Shown here piece after piece: positions 2,150 to 60,601 of a stretch of 64,000 nucleotides of DNA. Position 1 is the stretch's first letter. Every line of letters starts with the position of its first letter. Made by a program: the position numbers and the translations under genes. Under the pieces are notes generated by a model. It worked only from the letters and a program-made list of their open reading frames with translations. It had not been told where the DNA came from and ran no database searches. Source of the DNA: Alphaproteobacteria bacterium (GTDB lineage Bacteria > Pseudomonadota > Alphaproteobacteria > UBA7985); the NCBI GenBank assembly GCA_965658725.1, contig CBFHUI010000004.1:2825-66824 (forward strand). Direction: 5' to 3'.

Positions 2150-3010
2150 ATGCCAACGCTGCTCGGGTTTGGTGCCATCCTGCTGTGGGCGGCGCTGGCG
2201 CTCCTGACGTCCCTGACAACCCGATTGCCCTTGTTCGAGTGGCTCGCGCTGACCTTCGGTCTCGCGACGCTGTTCAGCTTGCCCATGCTGTTGCGTGCCG
2301 GGGCCGTTGCATCGCTGCGGGCTGTGCCGGTAGGCGGCTGGGCGCTGGGGATCATGGGGCTGTTTGGCTATCACGCGCTGTACATGCTCGCGCTCAAGAA
2401 CGCACCGACGGCGCAGGCCGGGCTGATCGCTTACCTGTGGCCGCTGCTGATCGTGCTGTTTTCCATGGCGGGGCAGCCCGCCGGGCGCTGGGTTCTGCCG
2501 ATCCTGGGCGGCGGGTTGGGGCTGGTTGGGGCTGCGCTGCTGGTCGTGGATCCGAGCGAAGGCGGGTTCCAGCCGACCTACGCACTGGGCTACGGCTTTG
2601 CGCTTGCCTGTGCGCTCATGTGGTCGAGCTACTCCGTCCTGAACCGGCGGTTAAGCGCCGTGCCGACGGTGGCGGTGGTCGTTTATTGCGCGGTGGCGGC
2701 GCTGGGCGGGCTTGGGCTGTCGCTGGCCTTAGAGGACTGGGTGCGACCGACCGCGCTTGAGTGGGCCGGGCTGGTCGGACTGGCGCTGGGGCCCATGGGG
2801 TTGGCGTTCTTCGTCTGGGACTATGGCACCAAGCACGGGAACGTCACGCTGCTCGGTGCGCTGAGCTATTTCGCGCCGCTGCTCTCGACGTTGTTGCTGG
2901 TCGCAGCGGGGCAGGCGCAGGCGTCGTGGGTGTTGGCGCTGGCGACGGTGCTGATTGTCGGCGGGGCGGGTTTGGCCGCGCTGGGGCTGCGGCGCAAGGA
3001 AGCCGCCTAG
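2150..3010 (+). CDS. EamA/DMT family transporter (YddG-like)
   Basis: About 10 TM segments in two repeats; GLFGYHALY, LIAYLWPLLIV, LSYFAPLLST. Confidence 0.88.
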   Translation: MPTLLGFGAILLWAALALLTSLTTRLPLFEWLALTFGLATLFSLPMLLRAGAVASLRAVPVGGWALGIMGLFGYHALYMLALKNAPTAQAGLIAYLWPLLIVLFSMAGQPAGRWVLPILGGGLGLVGAALLVVDPSEGGFQPTYALGYGFALACALMWSSYSVLNRRLSAVPTVAVVVYCAVAALGGLGLSLALEDWVRPTALEWAGLVGLALGPMGLAFFVWDYGTKHGNVTLLGALSYFAPLLSTLLLVAAGQAQASWVLALATVLIVGGAGLAALGLRRKEAA

Positions 3011-3960
3011 TCCTCTGCCTTCTCGGCGGCTTCAGCGGCGCGCATTTCAGCCAGTTCGGCGCGGATAGCGTGGAGTTCCTGCAGGATGGCGCGCTGCGCA
3101 GGGTCGGCAACCTCGTCAGCGGTCATGGTGCTTTCTGCTTCGTCCTTGGCCGAGTCCATGGCGTTCACCAGAATACCAATGAACAGGTTGAGCGCCGCAA
3201 ACGCTGAGATCACCACGAACAGCGTGAAGTAAACCCACGAGCTGGGGTGCACTTCCATGATTGGACGCACGATCCCGTGGGACCAGCTTTCCAGCGTCAT
3301 GATCTGGAACAGCGTGTAGAACGCGCGGCCTAGGTCGCCGAAGTAGTCGTACCCGTCCGCACCATAGCCGCCATAGAGCGTACCGCTGTAGAGCTGCACC
3401 CCGATCACGGCGAAGACATAGTGGATCAAGATCAGCAGCAGCGCCGCCGACCCCATCCCGGGCAGGGCGCGGAACAGGCCGGAGACCACCAGTCGCATCG
3501 CCGGGATTGCTGCGACCAGTCGGAGCACCCGCAGCACGCGCAGCGCCCGCAGCACCTTGAGCGAGTCCGTTGCCGGGACAAAGGCGACCGCGACCACAGC
3601 CAGATCGAACCAGTTCCACGGATCGCGGAAGAACCGCAAACGGTAGGCCGCCGCCTTGAGCGCGATTTCGCAGACGAAGAAGGCCAGCGCGATGGTGTCG
3701 AGGATCAGCAGGATCTGCCCAACCGAACCTTCGCCCGCTTCCCTTACGTTCTTCGACGTCAGCAGGCCGAGGATGATGGCGTTGGCGATGATGACCCCGA
3801 TCACCAGCGTGCGGAACCAGCGCGCCTCGACAAAGCGGGTCAGGCGGTTTTCCGGCCCAGCAGGCCGCTCGGGCTTGGGCTTGGCAGCCTTGGAGGTCGA
3901 GACGTGGGGGGCGTTGTTGGCGCGCGCGGCGGCGTGTGCGCCTGTGACGGGAGATTTCAT
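3007..3960 (-). CDS. Bacterial voltage-gated sodium channel (BacNav, ion transport protein)
   Basis: 6TM; S4 LRALRVLRVLRLV; pore FQIMTLESWSHGIVRPIM; S6 NLFIGILVNAM; C-terminal coiled coil. Confidence 0.92.
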   Translation of the reverse strand: MKSPVTGAHAAARANNAPHVSTSKAAKPKPERPAGPENRLTRFVEARWFRTLVIGVIIANAIILGLLTSKNVREAGEGSVGQILLILDTIALAFFVCEIALKAAAYRLRFFRDPWNWFDLAVVAVAFVPATDSLKVLRALRVLRVLRLVAAIPAMRLVVSGLFRALPGMGSAALLLILIHYVFAVIGVQLYSGTLYGGYGADGYDYFGDLGRAFYTLFQIMTLESWSHGIVRPIMEVHPSSWVYFTLFVVISAFAALNLFIGILVNAMDSAKDEAESTMTADEVADPAQRAILQELHAIRAELAEMRAAEAAEKAED

Positions 3961-3984
3961 CGATGAGTCAAGCGTTGCAGTCTG

Positions 3985-4386
3985 TCAGGAAGGTCCAAAA
4001 ACGACCTCGTGCATAACCCGTCCGGGCAAAAGCGTGAACCAAATGTTGAGGCCGAGTGCACCAAACCAGAGCAAAATCATTGTTAAACGGTGATCTTTGA
4101 CCCGATGCGCCCGCGCCGCTCGCCATCCCATGATCAAACCAAAGCCTGCAAACAGGGTTAGGAGATGAATGGGGCTGAACGGTCCCCAGGTTCTGATCTG
4201 GTTGATGAACAGGGACGAGAGCACGGCCACCAGCATGGCGCTCATCCACGTGTAACCCAGCGCGCGATGGATCAGCGTACCTTTCGGTCTGGCAAAAATG
4301 AGCACCCCGAGTGCCAGCGACGCGAGAGCGGTGCTGGCGTGGAGAGCAATCAGCCATCCCGCGCTGAGCAGGGGCTCGAGGGACAC
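3985..4386 (-). CDS. DUF2306-type membrane protein
   Basis: LHASTA...PKGTLIHRALGYTW...GPFSPIHLL...H..TM His pattern; 4 TM. Confidence 0.75.
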   Translation of the reverse strand: MSLEPLLSAGWLIALHASTALASLALGVLIFARPKGTLIHRALGYTWMSAMLVAVLSSLFINQIRTWGPFSPIHLLTLFAGFGLIMGWRAARAHRVKDHRLTMILLWFGALGLNIWFTLLPGRVMHEVVFGPS

Positions 4387-4387
4387 T

Positions 4388-4792
4388 CTAGGCGGTGGCG
4401 TAGCGGGCGCGTGCGCCGCGTTCGATACCAGCAGCGATCAGCCGGTCGATGTTCAGGCGGTGGCGCACCAGCTCCAGCACCTGCATTTCTTCGTCCGTCA
4501 GCACCCCGTCCGCTGCAGCCATCTCGCAGGCCAGTGCGTAGCCGGTTTCGCAGAGCTGCGCGGATAGTGCCCCCTGCATATCGCCAAACAGCAATTCTAA
4601 ACCGTCTTCGGCTTCCAGCGCTGTTGCGATCCGGCGTGCGGTCTCGGGCAGGGTTTCGATGTCAAAGCTATTGAACACCGGCCAGCTTCGCACCACGTCC
4701 GCCATCTTCTTCAGCTCCTGATCCGCGATGTCGTTATCTGCGGCCGAGACCAGAACCATAATGGCAATGAGTGAGTCGTGATGCGTCGCCAT
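4388..4792 (-). CDS. TerB-family (tellurite resistance-like) protein
   Basis: MVLVSAADNDIADQE...AYALACEMAAADG..TDEE..L. Confidence 0.8.
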   Translation of the reverse strand: MATHHDSLIAIMVLVSAADNDIADQELKKMADVVRSWPVFNSFDIETLPETARRIATALEAEDGLELLFGDMQGALSAQLCETGYALACEMAAADGVLTDEEMQVLELVRHRLNIDRLIAAGIERGARARYATA

Positions 4793-4901: not shown

Positions 4902-7736
4902 CTAGTCGAGGAAGGACCGGATCCTCTGGCAGGCTTCATCAAGGCCAAGGCGATGGATCGGCACCCCGGTGGGAAAGGCGCTTTCCAGGCGGCTGGGCAT
5001 CATGGGGTCGAGCAGGACGAACACGCCCTTGTCCGTTTGCCGCCGGATCAGCCGGCCGAAGGCCTGCCGCAGCTTGGCCCGCGCAAGCATGTCATCCAGC
5101 CCGCGCCCACCAAAAGCGTCGCGACGCGCACGGTGCAGGATATCGGGCCGGGGCCACGGTACGCGCTCAAAGGCAAGCAGGCGCAGGCTGTTCCCCGGCA
5201 CATCCACGCCGTCCCGCACGGCATCCGTCCCGAGCAAACAGGCGTTGGTGTCATCGCGGAAGATGTCCACCAGCGTCCCCGTGTCCATGGCGTCCACGTG
5301 TTGCGCGAACAGCGGCAGTCCGTTTTCTTCCAGCGGCGTTCGAATGCGATCGTAGACCGCGCGCAGGCGTCGGATGGCGGTAAACAGCCCGATGCCGCCC
5401 CCACCCGAGGCCATGAAAAGGCTTTCGAATGCAGCCGCGAGGGCGCCGGGCTGGTTCTTGGGCACATCGCCAACGATCAGTACTTCGGCCTGATTGGCGT
5501 AGTCATAGGGGCTTTCCACGCGCGCGCGAAAAGCGCCACCGCGCAAGTGTTGCGCCCCGGTTCGCTCTTCTGCCACGCGCCACGCATTTTCGGTGTCAGC
5601 GACCGGGTCCGTGAGGGTGGCAGAAGTGACGACAAAGCCCTGCACCTGGCTGGCCATGGTTTGGCTAAAGGGCTTCATCGGGTCGATGAAGTGGCGGTAG
5701 TAGCCCAGATCGCGGTCCTTGCCGTCCACACGCTCTACAGAGAACCAATCCACGAAATCAGGCGGTGGATCGCTTTCTAGGTCGCGCAGCATGGCGGACC
5801 ACGCGGTCAGCGGGTCCACGGCGCGGCGTTCGAGCGAACGCACCATGGCTTCGGCGCGGCGCCGGGCGTCGGCTTGGGACTTCCACTGGACCGGCTGGTC
5901 CTCGTCGCTGCCTTCGTTCTCTGTGCTGGCCTCAGCATCTTCATTGTCTTTACCCGTAGGCTGTTCGAGAACGTCAATCAGGCAGGCGCGCAAGTCCTGC
6001 ACGGGCTTGAGCAAGCGCCCCAGCGCCTCTTCAAACTCGCGCGCGGCGGCCAGCAAGCCAGTAACCGGCGGTCGCGGGGTGCATTCGATCGAGAACGGGT
6101 CGCCGGGCTTGTCGGCGCGGGCATAGACCTGCTCCCCAACAAAGCTCAGGAAGTACTCGCCCGCCCCGTCCGGCGTGCCGTCGCGCAAGCGCTGGTACCA
6201 GCCCGGGCCGGGTAGGGTGTAGGCCCCCTGTTCAACTTCCTTGAGCAGATCCGGCAGACGCGGGTCGAGGGTGACGACCTCTTCCATCCGAACCCGCAGG
6301 CCACGTCCTCGCCCGCGCTTGTCGCTTTCCGGGCCGAGCAGCCAGCGGCGCAGCTCAGCGGTTTCCAGCCCGGAGAGACCGGCGCTGAAAAAGCTGTCGG
6401 AGGCGTCGAAGAGGTGATGGCCTTCGTCGAAAACCACGTGCTCGGACAGATCGCTTTCCGGGCCCTGTCCAGCTTGATTGAGCACGAGCGCATGGTTGGC
6501 GATTACCAGTCGGGCATGGCGGGCGTTACGGATGTTCTTCTCGATCCCGCATTTGCTGTAGTGCGGGCAACCGGAATAGAGGCACTCGCCGCGCTGGTCG
6601 GTCAGGTCGGTGGTGACTTTGGTGCCGAACAGGTCGATCAACCACGCTGGAAAGTCGCCCCCAACCATATCGCCGCTGCGGCTGCGCTCAGCCCAACGCG
6701 CGGTAATGACCAGCCCGATGCGATCCCGATCGGTGAGGCCGCCGGCTTGTCCCGCTTCTTGCAGATTCAGCAGGCAGAGATAGTTCTCCCGCCCTTTGCG
6801 AACCACCACGTTCCGGTTTTTCGTGCCCGGCTCTTCGAACAGGCGGTCCATTTCCTGATCGATTTGACGCTGTAGGGCGCGGGTGTAGGTCGAGACCCAG
6901 ACAGAGCCTTTGTTCTTACCTGCCCACACGGTCGCAGGCGCGAGATAGCCCAGCGTTTTCCCCACGCCTGTTCCGGCCTCGGCGAGCACCATGTGCGGGG
7001 AAGCGCGTTCTTCGCGGGGATGAAAGGCCTGACTGACAGCAGAGGCATAGTCGGCCTGCGAGGGACGTTCTTCGACATCGCCTCGGCCCAGCCCGAGCAG
7101 CGTGGAAAGTTGCTTGCGCGCTTCAGCCTCGGTGACGGGGTCCGTGCCGGGGCGGCCTTGGGCGGCCTCGTCTTCCCACGTGTCCATCCGTTCCCACACT
7201 CGCAGGGCGCGGGATTGGTCCGCGCCGGGATCGAGCGCGGCGTCTCCGGCCGTGGCGGCGAGGCCGCGTACGATGGGTTGCGCCCAGGGCCAGTGCGCCC
7301 GCGCAGCGATCCACACGCCTGAAAGCATCACACGATCCGTTGCACCAAAGCCGCTGAGCTCGGCGAGAAGCGCGCGGGCGATGGCGCGGAGGTTGGCGGC
7401 AAGATCGTCGGGACCGGCGGCGTCTTCGGGTTCTTCCAGCCCCACCACGCGGGACAGTGACTTGGCCGTTGGCGTAACCGTGCGCGAGGGGCGTACAAAG
7501 GCGAAGAGTTCAAGCACATCCAGCGAGCGAAAGCGCGCCATTCCCCCGCGCCGTGCCAGCGCTGGCATGTGACAGACCAGTGGCGCGTCCTTGGTCAGCG
7601 CTTGAGACAGCGCTTGGGCAGAAAGTTGTTTTGCTGCCTGTCCGGGCGCACACCACCACAATCCACCGCCGTGCCACACCAGCACCGGCGCTGTATCAAC
7701 GGACAGCCCCTCAGAACGATCGAACAAATCAAGCAT
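4902..7736 (-). CDS. dinG: DinG-family ATP-dependent DNA helicase (Fe-S)
   Basis: EAGTGVGKT Walker A, DEGHHL, four Cys (YLCL, GECLYSGCPHYSKC), GVDVPG, QAFGRLIR; start placed at ATG 7736 (MLDLFDRS). Confidence 0.88.
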   Translation of the reverse strand: MLDLFDRSEGLSVDTAPVLVWHGGGLWWCAPGQAAKQLSAQALSQALTKDAPLVCHMPALARRGGMARFRSLDVLELFAFVRPSRTVTPTAKSLSRVVGLEEPEDAAGPDDLAANLRAIARALLAELSGFGATDRVMLSGVWIAARAHWPWAQPIVRGLAATAGDAALDPGADQSRALRVWERMDTWEDEAAQGRPGTDPVTEAEARKQLSTLLGLGRGDVEERPSQADYASAVSQAFHPREERASPHMVLAEAGTGVGKTLGYLAPATVWAGKNKGSVWVSTYTRALQRQIDQEMDRLFEEPGTKNRNVVVRKGRENYLCLLNLQEAGQAGGLTDRDRIGLVITARWAERSRSGDMVGGDFPAWLIDLFGTKVTTDLTDQRGECLYSGCPHYSKCGIEKNIRNARHARLVIANHALVLNQAGQGPESDLSEHVVFDEGHHLFDASDSFFSAGLSGLETAELRRWLLGPESDKRGRGRGLRVRMEEVVTLDPRLPDLLKEVEQGAYTLPGPGWYQRLRDGTPDGAGEYFLSFVGEQVYARADKPGDPFSIECTPRPPVTGLLAAAREFEEALGRLLKPVQDLRACLIDVLEQPTGKDNEDAEASTENEGSDEDQPVQWKSQADARRRAEAMVRSLERRAVDPLTAWSAMLRDLESDPPPDFVDWFSVERVDGKDRDLGYYRHFIDPMKPFSQTMASQVQGFVVTSATLTDPVADTENAWRVAEERTGAQHLRGGAFRARVESPYDYANQAEVLIVGDVPKNQPGALAAAFESLFMASGGGGIGLFTAIRRLRAVYDRIRTPLEENGLPLFAQHVDAMDTGTLVDIFRDDTNACLLGTDAVRDGVDVPGNSLRLLAFERVPWPRPDILHRARRDAFGGRGLDDMLARAKLRQAFGRLIRRQTDKGVFVLLDPMMPSRLESAFPTGVPIHRLGLDEACQRIRSFLD

Positions 7737-56971: not shown

Positions 56972-57337
56972 ATGGCTGAATCTCATCGTCAACAGCGTGT
57001 AGCGGAACGTATCCGCAAAATCCTGTCCGCAGAACTGGCGAAAAGCAACTTCTCAGATGCCGTGCTCGACCGGCAACCCATCACCATCACCCATGTTGAT
57101 CCCTCTCCCGACTTGCGTCATGCGAAGGTCTTTTTCACCGCTTTGGGGGGTGTGGCGCTGGTGCCGGTCAAGGATCTCAAGGATGCACTGACCCGGCAAA
57201 AGACCGCGTTGCAGTCGGCGCTGGGTCGGCAATTGACCATGAAGTTCACGCCAAAGCTTACGTTTGTCCCTGACGATGCCTTTGACAAAGCCGATCACAT
57301 GAACCGGCTCATCCATGGTTTGCCACAAGCGAACTGA
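56972..57337 (+). CDS. rbfA: Ribosome-binding factor A
   Basis: AGGAGG SD; RQQRVAERIR, ITITHV..SPDLRHAKVF, MKFTPKLTFV.D. Confidence 0.88.
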   Translation: MAESHRQQRVAERIRKILSAELAKSNFSDAVLDRQPITITHVDPSPDLRHAKVFFTALGGVALVPVKDLKDALTRQKTALQSALGRQLTMKFTPKLTFVPDDAFDKADHMNRLIHGLPQAN

Positions 57338-57812
57338 TCGCCTTCGCAGTCTGGGAAAGTCCGGCTCGGCGCAGGTCGTCGGGGTGGTGGTCTGGGCTCT
57401 GCAGCGCTGTCGCATGGGCCGCGAAGAAAGCGTCGATACTCACTCGATCCAGCCCAAGCGGTCTTAACTGCCGCAGGGGAAAGTCGCGGGCGTTGCTGGT
57501 AACAATCAAGCTGGCGTCAGCACTCAGCGCCGCTTCGATCACATGCAGATCGCCGGGATCGCGGAAGCCGTTGGCGGAGAGCGGGAGCGGGGCGGGTGTG
57601 ACGATGCTGGCCTGAAACTGGGTCAGAAAAACCTCAGCATCGGGCATGGCTCGAGCGGTGAGAACGGCGCGGAGCTCCTCGACGGTGCGCGTGGACCAGA
57701 GCGGCTGAATCGTGCCTGTCCGAGCAAGATCGGCAATCAACGCCCGCACTCGAAAACGAAAAAGCGCGTTGGTGTCGAACACAACGCGCTTTGAGGTGGG
57801 TGAGGATGCCAC
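57309..57812 (-). CDS. PIN-domain protein (PIN_3-like)
   Basis: VVFDTNAL, WS....EEL, DPGDLHVIEAA, IVTSNARDFP. Confidence 0.8.
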   Translation of the reverse strand: MASSPTSKRVVFDTNALFRFRVRALIADLARTGTIQPLWSTRTVEELRAVLTARAMPDAEVFLTQFQASIVTPAPLPLSANGFRDPGDLHVIEAALSADASLIVTSNARDFPLRQLRPLGLDRVSIDAFFAAHATALQSPDHHPDDLRRAGLSQTAKAISSLVANHG

Positions 57813-57826
57813 GGAAAGGCGGCTTC

Positions 57827-59464
57827 TTAGCTCTTGGACTCGAGCGTTTCCCAGTGCTGACGCTTGCGGTAGATCGTTGAAGCAGAGATCCCAAGCAGTG
57901 CGGCTGCTTTCGGGATGTTACCACCACAGGACTCGATGGCGTCCTCGATGGCCTGCTTCTCTGTTTCCCACAGGGGCAGAATGCCTTCAGCACGCCGCCG
58001 GATTGGCGCGCCTTCACCAGCAGCAGCCGGGTTGACGATGCCCTCAATCGGGGCAGTGGAGCGCGGAGACAGCGGGTTGGGCGTGCTGGTCGTCGCGCGC
58101 AGGGCTTCTGCGGCGAGGTTCTCGGCCAGCGGACTAGCGGGTGCGGACGGCACGCTGTTCTGCGGAGGAGCCACGGAGACCGGGGATGCGCCGCCTTGGT
58201 TGGGTAGAGCGGTCGGCGCGCCAGCGGTGAACATGGCGGGTGGGGTATGCGCGTGAACACCCGGAACGCGGCCCGGGCCAGACCCTGCCGGGTTTACGGG
58301 TGCTGGCACCATATCGGCTGTTACCTGCTCACCCTTGTTCAGGACGACGATGTTACGGATAACGTTCTGCAGCTGGCGGACGTTGCCCGGCCAAGGATAG
58401 TTCAGGAACATGCGGGAGACTTCGGGGTCGAAATCGCGGAAGCGCTTGTTCTCTTCAGCAGCAAACTCCACCAGAATCTTGCGGGCAATGTCGAGCGTAT
58501 CGCCCTCACGCGCGCGCAGCGGTGGCAGGTGGATCGGAATGACGTGCAGGCGGTAGTAGAGGTCTTCGCGGAAGCGGCCTTCGCCGATTTCCACCAGCGG
58601 ATCGCGGTTGGTGGCGCAGATGAAGCGGATATCAACCTTCTGCTGCTTGGTTCCACCGACTTTGGTGAAGGTGCCGGTCTGGATAAAGCGCAGCAGCTTG
58701 GACTGCAGGTGCAGGTCCATTTCGCAGACTTCGTCGAGGAACAGCGTACCGCCCTCCGCCTGCGAGGCCGCGCCTTCGTGATCGCTGATCGCGCCGGTAA
58801 AGGCGCCTTTCACGTGACCGAAGATTTCGGATTCCATCAGGTCTTTCGGGATCGCTGCACAGTTCAGCACGACAAGCGGCTTTTTCGCGCGCGGGGAAAG
58901 ACGATGGATGGCTTCGGCCGTGACTTCTTTACCTGTACCAGACTCGCCGGTGATGAAGGTTGTGGCCTTGGACGGCGCGGCGGATTCCACCATGCGGTAG
59001 ATGACCTGCATGGCCTTGGACTTGCCAATGAAGCCCTGAAAGCCCTTGGTCGAGACCGGCTTGGGGTTGGCGATGACCTGCTGCTTGATGCTCTCGCGCT
59101 TCAAAGCGGCGGTGAGCGTCTGGACGAGGCGCTGTCGGTTGAACGGCTTGACGAGGAAGTCGTACGCCCCGCCGCGCATGGTCTCGACCGCCATGTTGAT
59201 CGAGCCGTGAGCCGTAATCATGATGACGGCGGAGTTGAGGCCGCGCTCCTGGATAAAGTCGAGGATCTCCGTGCCGTTCATATCGGGCAGACGAACGTCC
59301 AGCAAAATGACGTCGGGTTCATCGTTGGAGAGATGCTTGAGCGCTTCCTTGCCACTGCTGGCGTGCGTGATGTCGAGCGGCTCCTCTTTCAGATATTCCT
59401 TATACAGGGAAACCAGAGGCTGCTCATCTTCAACAAGCAAAACTTTAAAGCGTTGTGCGCTCAT
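57827..59464 (-). CDS. sigma54-dependent response regulator (REC-AAA+-Fis HTH), LuxO-like
   Basis: VED, LLDVRLPDM, TAHGS, QGFIG, GESGTGKE, GAFTGA, FLDEVCEMDLHLQSKLLRFIQTGTF, WPGNVRQLQN, ILPLWETEKQAIEDAI..C.GNIPKAA. Confidence 0.9.
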   Translation of the reverse strand: MSAQRFKVLLVEDEQPLVSLYKEYLKEEPLDITHASSGKEALKHLSNDEPDVILLDVRLPDMNGTEILDFIQERGLNSAVIMITAHGSINMAVETMRGGAYDFLVKPFNRQRLVQTLTAALKRESIKQQVIANPKPVSTKGFQGFIGKSKAMQVIYRMVESAAPSKATTFITGESGTGKEVTAEAIHRLSPRAKKPLVVLNCAAIPKDLMESEIFGHVKGAFTGAISDHEGAASQAEGGTLFLDEVCEMDLHLQSKLLRFIQTGTFTKVGGTKQQKVDIRFICATNRDPLVEIGEGRFREDLYYRLHVIPIHLPPLRAREGDTLDIARKILVEFAAEENKRFRDFDPEVSRMFLNYPWPGNVRQLQNVIRNIVVLNKGEQVTADMVPAPVNPAGSGPGRVPGVHAHTPPAMFTAGAPTALPNQGGASPVSVAPPQNSVPSAPASPLAENLAAEALRATTSTPNPLSPRSTAPIEGIVNPAAAGEGAPIRRRAEGILPLWETEKQAIEDAIESCGGNIPKAAALLGISASTIYRKRQHWETLESKS

Positions 59465-59607
59465 CAATATCAAATCCCATGCCAAAGCGTAGGCAATAAC
59501 AATTTACGGCTAAACAATATGCGACGTTGTAATTCTCGATCTAAGTACGCTGCGAAAACCACTGAAATCAAGGATTTTTTTCGGTTTTGACGCAATTCGT
59601 TTGATCG

Positions 59608-59620
59608 CTGCATTTTGCAA
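59608..59620. promoter_or_regulatory. LuxO-box-like palindrome
   Basis: CTGCA-TTT-TGCAA, one mismatch to the Vibrio LuxO site TTGCA-W3-TGCAA, 144 nt upstream of the LuxO-like ATG. Confidence 0.5.
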
Positions 59621-59724
59621 ACATCAGCGCAAAGCGAAAAATCGCTCGGGTGCCGTTTGGCCAATAAGCCAGATTTCCACCGACTTATCCACAAAAAAAC
59701 TCCCTATTTACGGGGGTAGAAGTC

Positions 59725-59755
59725 AAAAAAAGGGCGTCCTAATTGGACGCCCTTT
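59725..59755. terminator. Intrinsic terminator (BI-1 gene; possibly bidirectional)
   Basis: AAAAAAAGGGCGTCC-TAATT-GGACGCCCTTT, perfect 11-bp stem. Confidence 0.88.
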
Positions 59756-59788
59756 GTGCTCAAGTCTGAGACCTGATCAAGCTGGAGC

Positions 59789-60601
59789 CTAGTTCCGTGC
59801 GGAGAAGATCCGCAGCAGGGACAGGAACAGGTTGATGAAGTTGATGTACAGGCTCAGCGCGCCGCCGATGGCGTAGGACTGTGCCAGTGCCTGATCCCCG
59901 GACTGTGCCGCGTGGTAGTACAGGCCCTTCAGGTTCTGCGTGGTGTAAGCGATCAGCGCCAGAGAGGCGAAGATCACGACAACGCTGATCAGGATGTCGA
60001 ACCAGCCACCTGCGAAGATACCGATGCCCAGCACGTTGCCCAGGAACAGCTGTGCGACCGATGCGATGATCGCAGCGAGGATGCCTGCGCCGGCAATCGC
60101 GCCGATGCTGCTCAGGTCACGGTTCGTGGTGTAACCGAAGAGCGACAGAATGCCGAAGCCCAGCGATGCGGACAGGAAGGCCTTGAGAACGACCGGACCG
60201 GAATAGCCGGTGGCGTTCGCCAGCTGCTGCGCGCCCACGCTGTTGATCGCGAAGGCCATGATGAAGGACAGCGCCACGCCCATCAGCGTGGCAAAGGTCC
60301 AGAACACGGCCTGTGCCGCACTGGGGCTCATTGTATAGATGCGTCCACCGAAGATGAATGACAGCACCAGCGGCGCAAACATGACTACCCAGCGCACGGG
60401 CGAGCCGTACAGGATCTGGCCCAGGACGGAGCCGTCCTGAAAGGCAAAGTAGGCAACCACAAAGCCGACGACGCCAGTAAGCGCCAGTCCGCCGATCATG
60501 TAGTTGTAAACGGACAAGAAGAAGGTCCGTAGACCAGCGTCAACCGCGACGTCACCGGCGCGGCGGTAGCTGATTGGATCGTCGTCGAAGTTGTTCGACA
60601 T
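59789..60601 (-). CDS. Bax inhibitor-1/YccA family membrane protein
   Basis: DAGLR.F.LSVYNYM..GLALTG, LFGYTTNRDLS, TQNLK, GALSLYINFINLF. Confidence 0.92.
   Translation of the reverse strand: MSNNFDDDPISYRRAGDVAVDAGLRTFFLSVYNYMIGGLALTGVVGFVVAYFAFQDGSVLGQILYGSPVRWVVMFAPLVLSFIFGGRIYTMSPSAAQAVFWTFATLMGVALSFIMAFAINSVGAQQLANATGYSGPVVLKAFLSASLGFGILSLFGYTTNRDLSSIGAIAGAGILAAIIASVAQLFLGNVLGIGIFAGGWFDILISVVVIFASLALIAYTTQNLKGLYYHAAQSGDQALAQSYAIGGALSLYINFINLFLSLLRIFSARN

Follow-up and report, generated by a model that had tools for sequence, protein, structure and literature searches.

A conserved LuxO-type dyad upstream of a luxO-like gene as a candidate autoregulatory operator in marine Alphaproteobacteria

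Introduction

Nearly all work on LuxO concerns Vibrionaceae, where the protein is the central node of quorum sensing. Vibrio LuxO represses its own gene from a site that overlaps the -35 element, and the same site serves the sigma-54 promoter of the divergent qrr1 gene (PMC2632942); in V. cholerae, the site located between qrr1 and luxO has its center 28 bp ahead of the luxO start site (PMC10328515). A nearly identical sequence precedes a luxO-like gene within a 64,000-nt stretch of an alphaproteobacterial contig (hereafter, the window). Is this sequence an operator and, if so, is it read by the product of the gene that it precedes? A preliminary description of this DNA had answered in the affirmative, proposing that both the DNA specificity of LuxO and its autoregulation are conserved across bacterial classes. 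The literature that we searched contained nothing linking LuxO-type regulators with these Alphaproteobacteria (Rhodospirillales, Geminicoccus).

A LuxO-type box upstream of a luxO-like gene

The box reads CTGCATTTTGCAA in the letters of the window (59608-59620; a dyad to which no strand was assigned) and TTGCAAAATGCAG along the gene strand, that is, TTGCA-AAA-TGCAG. It is identical to TTGCAWWWTGCAA at 12 of 13 positions, with nine of the 10 specified bases and the W3 spacer in place, and is equally close (12 of 13) to the V. cholerae qrr1<>luxO site ttgcaaaatgcaa. A scan for TTGCA-W3-TGCAA with at most one mismatch returned this box as the single match in the 64 kb, and the near-perfect LuxO box reported earlier (12 of 13 positions of TTGCA-W3-TGCAA) is thus upheld by both the sequence and the scan. 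The distance of 144 nt to the ATG of the minus-strand luxO-like gene (59464) had been given correctly as well, as had the AT-rich setting: the intergenic region around the box, 324 nt in length, has a GC content of 44% vs ~61% in the window. At most one mismatch being allowed, 0.19 matches are expected in the window, and 18 of 100 whole-window shuffles contained at least one; in shuffles of the 324-nt intergenic region, the probability of a 9/10 match is 0.012, or 0.002 when the W3 spacer is required. Public DNA sequencing runs show zero variants within the box, and the single metatranscriptome found has zero coverage here.

The gene preceded by the box (57827-59464, minus strand) encodes a 545-aa protein that consists of a REC domain, a sigma-54 AAA+ domain, a Pro/Ala-rich linker and a Fis-type HTH. 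The phospho-acceptor Asp of the REC domain lies inside DVILLDVRLPDMNG (aa 51-64), and the GAFTGA motif of the AAA+ domain is intact (aa 220-225). The best NCBIfam model is LuxO_transreg_Vib, with 630 bits vs 388 for NtrC, a score under the 800-bit equivalog cutoff, and the best PDB match is LuxO (5EP0; 480 bits vs 330 for NtrC1). By these scores, which agree with the earlier labeling of the gene as LuxO-like, the protein is a LuxO-like one at the family level, not a certified equivalog.

An alanine scan of residues 409-430 of V. cholerae LuxO has shown that G409, N410, I411, L418, V420, S423, I425, Y426, R427, K428 and L429 are critical for DNA binding, A414 and A415 already being alanines in the native protein (PMC11407668). 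This segment aligns in register, at a constant offset of 106, with the HTH segment GNIPKAAALLGISASTIYRKRQ of the window protein (aa 515-536; 57857-57922, minus strand). Nine of the 11 critical residues are identical (G, N, I, L, S, I, Y, R and K), V is conservatively replaced with I, and the position equivalent to L429 is occupied by R in the window protein and by K in the relatives that adjoin perfect boxes.

Between the AAA+ domain and the HTH, the window protein contains a low-complexity linker of ~100 residues rich in Pro, Ala and Ser (aa 387-487; 58004-58306, minus strand). Such a linker is typical of the box-bearing clade described below (508-627 aa) and is missing from homologs of the length of Vibrio LuxO (~455-480 aa). 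The nearest homologs of the protein come from marine Geminicoccus-like alphaproteobacterial MAGs. The ORF downstream of the luxO-like gene (57309-57812) encodes a PIN-domain protein of the RSP_2648 family, and the remainder of the window contains housekeeping genes, namely, nusA-infB, miaB, lnt, cobT and dxs.

Conservation of the box among close relatives

A scan at one genome per species yielded 80 LuxO-like loci, nine of which (L001-L009) are at 80-92% protein identity to the window gene; the upstream regions of these nine were aligned with that of the window (n=10). Both TGCA half-sites of the box are invariant in this alignment (columns T172-A175 and T179-A182). The spacer differs among the aligned sequences (AAA, GAT, GTT), and the outer bases drift (T/A on one side, G/T on the other), with at least one outer position off the consensus in every case. 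The subclade L005-L008 carries ATGCA-GAT-TGCAT, in which both outer positions are off the consensus and the spacer is not W3, and an extended perfect palindrome, GATGCA-N3-TGCATC, is found in one subclade. About 50 nt on the distal side of the box are unconserved. Every locus of the window clade has one full box rather than a tandem. Judging by the alignment, invariant half-sites combined with a drifting spacer and flanks are the footprint of a dyad-symmetric protein-binding site, the invariant core being TGCA-N3-TGCA; on the same grounds, the box is more than a chance match and is under selection. In our view, the box very probably acts as a cis-element in one way or another.

Other elements of the intergenic region

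The remaining conserved blocks of the alignment are the terminator of the neighboring gene; a DnaA box; an A-tract followed by CTTGATTTCAG; TTTCGC.G..TA.TTAG; GTCGCATATTGT; and a 17-nt block at the ATG. The intrinsic terminator (59729-59755, minus strand) belongs to the co-directional gene located upstream (59789-60601), for which the sole family match is a weak one, to a membrane-protein family, and bounds the regulatory region of the luxO-like gene on the upstream side. Between this terminator and the LuxO-type box lies a perfect DnaA box, TTATCCACA (59685-59693, plus strand), the only copy in the 64 kb, which is retained throughout the clade alignment with a single mismatch in one relative. 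A DnaA box is also present upstream of the gene of the sister lineage L081. A replication origin at this position was rejected because there is no GC-skew switch; the DnaA box may instead provide an input of DnaA into the luxO-like promoter.

On the way from the box to the ATG, a single conserved block resembles a promoter, namely, TTGATT-N18-TACTTA (59542-59571, minus strand), preceded by the A-tract: the TTGATT hexamer occupies 59571-59566 and, after 18 nt, TACTTA occupies 59547-59542. The -10 hexamer is weak and is not called by the consensus scan. Adjacent to the ATG is the 17-nt block TTGGCATGGGATTTGAT (59469-59485, minus strand), which is nearly invariant, with a single change in one of the 10 sequences, and is probably the ribosome-binding site or a translational control region; it might also be the target of an sRNA. 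The N-terminal codons of the luxO-like gene vary synonymously among the relatives, and therefore the ATG at 59464 is the real start. The consensus fold of the 5'-UTR is a weak helix without covariation. A related motif, ...TTTGAT-N3-5-ATG, was seen again in the sister lineages L081 and L087.

The preliminary description had evoked the arrangement of Vibrio, in which the LuxO site also serves a divergent qrr1, and this layout did not hold up here: no divergent sigma-54 promoter, no qrr-like RNA and no luxU were detected. In the 10-sequence alignment, both strands of the region delimited by the terminator and the ATG are devoid of a conserved GG-N10-GC; none occurs within ~1 kb of the box, with one weak copy more than 1 kb away; and nothing conserved emerged from a sigma-54 promoter scan upstream of the distant loci. 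The only -24/-12 candidate near the box is TGGCAT-N5-TTGAT, situated ~130 bp downstream of it, and TTGGCATGGGATTTGAT likewise looks like a sigma-54 promoter. This reading was rejected because the near-invariant GC is replaced with GA, because transcription would begin ~6 nt into the coding sequence and because the synonymous variation noted above upholds the ATG. The divergent side of the box is unconserved apart from the DnaA box and runs into the terminator of the neighbor. Rfam searches found neither Qrr nor any other relevant family, either in the whole window at the gathering threshold or in L035, L036, L041, L053 and L078 at an E-value threshold. A luxU (Hpt) gene is absent directly downstream of the luxO-like gene, that position being occupied by the PIN-domain gene. 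Thus, the Vibrio module is only partly present, and at this locus the box is not an enhancer for a neighboring sigma-54 promoter or a Qrr-type sRNA.

The box in sister lineages

The next-closest proteins come from a set of sister contigs; they are 53-63% identical to the window protein and combine a long linker with the HTH GISASTIYRKKQ. The box is present at every sister locus with enough upstream sequence (five lineages), with nine or eight of the 10 consensus positions matched: GTGCATAATGCAA at -203 from the ATG in L081, GTGCAAATTGCAA at -129 in L082, GTGCATTTTGCAA at -129 in L085, GTGCAAAATGCGA at -133 in L087 and GTGCAAAATGCAA at -134 in L088. In four lineages, the agreement with the LuxO consensus reaches 9/10; the probability of such a match is 0.007-0.012 per lineage and ~1e-8 jointly over the four. 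A second box-like element, TGGCAGATTGCGA (8/10), is located at -84 in L082 and L085 and occurs also in L084, for which only 102 nt of upstream sequence are available; it is limited to the L082/L084/L085 lineage. The upstream neighbors vary among the sister lineages (MmcB-like, SecB and other genes), and pairwise blastn comparison of the upstream regions between lineages recovers essentially the box alone, with the DnaA box as an additional shared piece between the window clade and L081.

In a neighbor-joining tree of 72 LuxO-like proteins, from which Vibrio LuxO was left out, all box-bearing loci fall within one clade. The complete core is absent upstream at all 55 LuxO-like loci of the tree outside this clade, many of which have very similar recognition helices, and none of the 68 loci at 45-62% identity has a comparable upstream box. 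Absence of the site upstream of orthologs had been named in advance as evidence against the proposal, and the outcome is split: the site is present throughout one monophyletic clade but absent at the other 55 loci of the tree. Self-regulation predicts that the site would track the luxO-like gene within one protein clade.

Anchored on the box, the five sister lineages share the arrangement ttGTGCA-W3-TGC(A/G)A, followed after 8 nt by TATGGT, TATCAT (twice), TATACT or TATTGA, so that TAT is found at a fixed offset, 8 nt past the end of the box, in five of the five. We infer that TTGTGC and the -10-like hexamer, separated by 17 nt, form a sigma-70-type promoter in these lineages, with the box covering the -35 element and the spacer. 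The predicted start would then follow the center of the box by ~27-28 bp, as in the luxO autorepression of V. cholerae. The putative -35 element matches the consensus at only three of six positions and is not called by the consensus scan; the sigma-70 consensus scan of the L082 and L087 upstream regions called no promoter on the gene strand. In L082 and L085, the second box-like site is located just downstream of the predicted start.

The window clade has no TAT at the conserved offset after the box, and the sigma-70 consensus scan of 59300-59900 called no promoter. Here, the one conserved hexamer that resembles a -35 element is found ~45 bp downstream of the center of the box. Hence the proposal of autoregulation across classes stands only in part: the box follows the luxO-like gene through one clade with unrelated flanks, but in the window clade it shows no recognizable overlap with a -35 element.

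LuxO-type boxes at other luxO-like loci

The sites of V. cholerae LuxO mapped by ChIP-seq are ttgcaaaatgcaa (qrr1<>luxO), ttgcaatttgcaa and ttgcattttgcaa (PMC10328515). Exact matches to T[TC]GCA-W3-TGC[AG]A were counted in the 561 kb around 80 non-Vibrio luxO-like genes. Six were found vs 0.15 in shuffles, a ~40-fold enrichment, with two of the six located within coding sequence (L039 and L053); tandem box pairs in the same 561 kb number four vs 0.3 in shuffles. In L035, L037 and L041, several boxes have a sigma-54-like promoter at a distance of 80-125 bp. The tandem boxes of L053 and the box of L039 were not counted as sites, being inside apparent coding sequence. These observations suggest that T[T/C]GCA...TGC[A/G]A is a family-wide recognition code, which, by its distribution in the sequences, appears to be used by LuxO-like proteins of both Alpha- and Gammaproteobacteria. 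The proposed conservation of DNA specificity accordingly receives backing from nine of the 11 critical HTH residues, the 12 of 13 positions shared with ttgcaaaatgcaa and the enrichment of boxes outside Vibrio, but the 55 other loci of the tree lack the complete core upstream. A scan of metagenome contigs for TTGTGCAWWWTGCAA-N8-TAT gave at least 120 loci, and an enhancer-binding-protein gene was absent from all of the matches listed; this is the random background of a very large collection and is uninformative, not a refutation.

Several of these loci have distinctive layouts. In a gammaproteobacterial MAG (L035, JAUJGA010000184.1; 2729-2850 and 5538-5683), TCGCATTATGCGA precedes the luxO-like gene by 164 nt; in the divergent direction, the sigma-54-like promoter TGGCGCAGGGCTTGCT stands in front of a 100-aa ORF, and the site is located between the luxO-like gene and this promoter. 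This is the qrr1<>luxO arrangement, with a protein gene replacing the sRNA; downstream, a second box pair lies 83-124 bp from TGGAATGATTTTTGCA. In a Chromatiales MAG (L037; 100-270 and 7481-7601), the variant dyad TCGCA-W3-TGCGA is flanked by a divergent pair of strong sigma-54 promoters (TGGCACACAACTTGCT, TGGCACGGCTTTTGCT) and recurs 114 bp from a third.

The contig of a Rhodospirillales MAG (L041, JAVEYE010000032.1; 5215-5545) carries tandem near-perfect boxes, TTGCAAAATGCAC at 5511 and TTGCATTTTGCAA at 5530, 79-98 bp upstream of the sigma-54-like TGGCATGCGCCTTGCG on the minus strand. The ~155-200 nt that follow TGGCATGCGCCTTGCG are non-coding and structured (fold z = -3.55), end in an intrinsic terminator, are convergent with the luxO-like gene and have no Rfam match; this stretch is a candidate Qrr-analogous sRNA in an alphaproteobacterium. 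In a Reyranella MAG (L078, 4460-4600), the box-like sites TCGCATCCTGCAA and TTGCGAATTGCAA lie just downstream of the luxO-like gene. Next come TGGCACGTCTCTTGG and a gene that, on inspection by eye, looks UDP-glucose-dehydrogenase-like, a possible sigma-54 target in polysaccharide synthesis.

Discussion

The results are most readily accommodated if the luxO-like gene is controlled from the box as a conserved dyad operator, to which a dimer of the product of this very gene would bind through its Fis-type HTH, resulting in autoregulation. We hold this reading with moderate confidence; the product of the gene is the proposed binder because the box matches the V. cholerae site, the DNA-binding residues are conserved and boxes are enriched near relatives. 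By analogy with Vibrio, repression is the more likely sign of the regulation. In the window clade, where the box is distal to the candidate promoter, the outcome could be repression from a distal site, a block of read-through transcription or some other effect.

The explanation to be weighed most carefully against an operator read by LuxO-like protein is that the dyad belongs to some other factor, either another enhancer-binding protein with a Fis-type HTH, such as NtrC or NtrX, or an unrelated dimer, by which the luxO-like gene would be controlled, so that the resemblance to the LuxO site is coincidental. The conserved core is just TGCA-N3-TGCA, a short dyad around which the outer T/A of the Vibrio consensus vary, and an upstream box is missing from the majority of the LuxO-like loci whose recognition helices are similar, as this explanation would have it. 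However, the site tracks the luxO-like gene across changing neighborhoods and is confined to one protein clade, nine of the 10 LuxO consensus bases are found in four lineages, residues critical for DNA binding are kept, and LuxO-type boxes are enriched specifically around luxO-like genes, all of which make another factor rather unlikely. A chance match, retained because the close relatives have diverged too little, can be put aside as extremely improbable. Such a match does turn up in a good number of whole-window shuffles, and the proteins of L001-L004 and L009 are 90-92% identical; yet the spacer and flanks have diverged around invariant half-sites, and the box recurs at 53-63% protein identity, upstream of genes whose upstream regions are otherwise unalignable, with the joint probability over four lineages given above.

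Two further explanations keep the box functional while changing its role. The box could be an upstream activating sequence at which the LuxO-like protein binds to switch on a sigma-54 promoter, of its own gene or of a divergent RNA or protein gene, as at Vibrio qrr1. The intact GAFTGA motif and AAA+ domain, the pairing of similar boxes with sigma-54-like promoters 80-125 bp away (L035, L037, L041), and the presence of TGGCAT-N5-TTGAT ~130 bp downstream of the box speak for it; we consider it improbable nonetheless, given that GG-N10-GC is not conserved on either strand, that the one candidate is defective in its GC and start position, and that the divergent side offers only the DnaA box and no Rfam match. 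Slightly less probable again is that the box is a piece of the core promoter, with TTGCAA or TTGTGC as the -35 element and the second half-site and dyad symmetry being incidental. TTGCAA does resemble TTGACA, and the TTGTGC-N17-TAT..T of the five sister lineages is compatible with a promoter of the sigma-70 type. The second half-site (TGCAA/TGCAT), however, would then be located in an unconstrained spacer, yet it is conserved equally to the first, and the window clade keeps both half-sites without a properly spaced -10 element.

With autoregulation by the LuxO-like protein as the preferred reading, the closest known counterpart is the Vibrio qrr1-luxO operator of V. harveyi and V. cholerae, which likewise is a 13-bp TTGCA-W3-TGCAA dyad upstream of a REC-AAA+-HTH gene of the LuxO family and which resembles the sister lineages in the predicted position of the box, centered at about -28 and over the -35 element. 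The differences are the alphaproteobacterial host, from a marine Geminicoccus-like MAG clade; the lack, at this locus, of a divergent sigma-54 promoter, a qrr1-type sRNA and a downstream luxU; the location of the window-clade box ~45 bp upstream of the candidate -35 element, not on it; and a protein that scores 630 bits vs the cutoff of 800 and has an additional Pro/Ala-rich linker of ~100 aa. The upstream activating sequences of the NtrC family (those of LuxO at qrr2-4 and of NtrC at glnAp2) are also dyads read by a C-terminal Fis-type HTH, whereas the window locus has a single site, not a tandem, and no partner sigma-54 promoter. NtrC also represses the sigma-70 promoters glnAp1 and glnL, its own operon included, via sites that overlap the promoters, and recognizes TGCACC-N5-GGTGCA. 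It thereby exemplifies an enhancer-binding protein acting as a plain repressor of a sigma-70 promoter, with the differences that the recognition sequence is another one and that promoter overlap is not evident in the window clade.

The distribution of the box suggests joint transmission of a LuxO-type protein and its cognate 13-bp operator through a clade of uncultured marine Alphaproteobacteria, and that negative autoregulation of LuxO is an ancient or recurrent design feature, independent of Qrr sRNAs. To a specialist, it is unsurprising that a regulator with a conserved HTH keeps its motif and its self-regulation; conservation across the clade adds moderate interest. The box also provides a testable motif for regulon discovery of orphan LuxO-type regulators, next to -24/-12 promoters. 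A broader scenario, which we put forward tentatively, is that the LuxO recognition code and the self-operator predate Vibrio quorum sensing, and that the orphan regulator, with no adjacent Qrr or LuxU, controls a sigma-54 regulon, possibly with Qrr-analogous sRNAs such as the L041 candidate, and maybe with a tie to the cell cycle via the DnaA box.

A possible alphaproteobacterial precedent for the input side is the ShkA-ShpA-TacA phosphorelay of Caulobacter, in which a hybrid kinase and an Hpt protein feed a REC-AAA+-HTH activator. The domain architecture of the regulator, the class of the host and the LuxQ/LuxU/LuxO-like input logic are the same; the literature searched yielded no binding motif for TacA. 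An Hpt/REC protein also adjoins the relative in L089: directly after its luxO-like gene (P0025), which has no box upstream, lies a convergent gene for a PAS/REC/Hpt protein (2986-4437), so that certain lineages of Alphaproteobacteria may possess a phosphorelay partner resembling LuxU.
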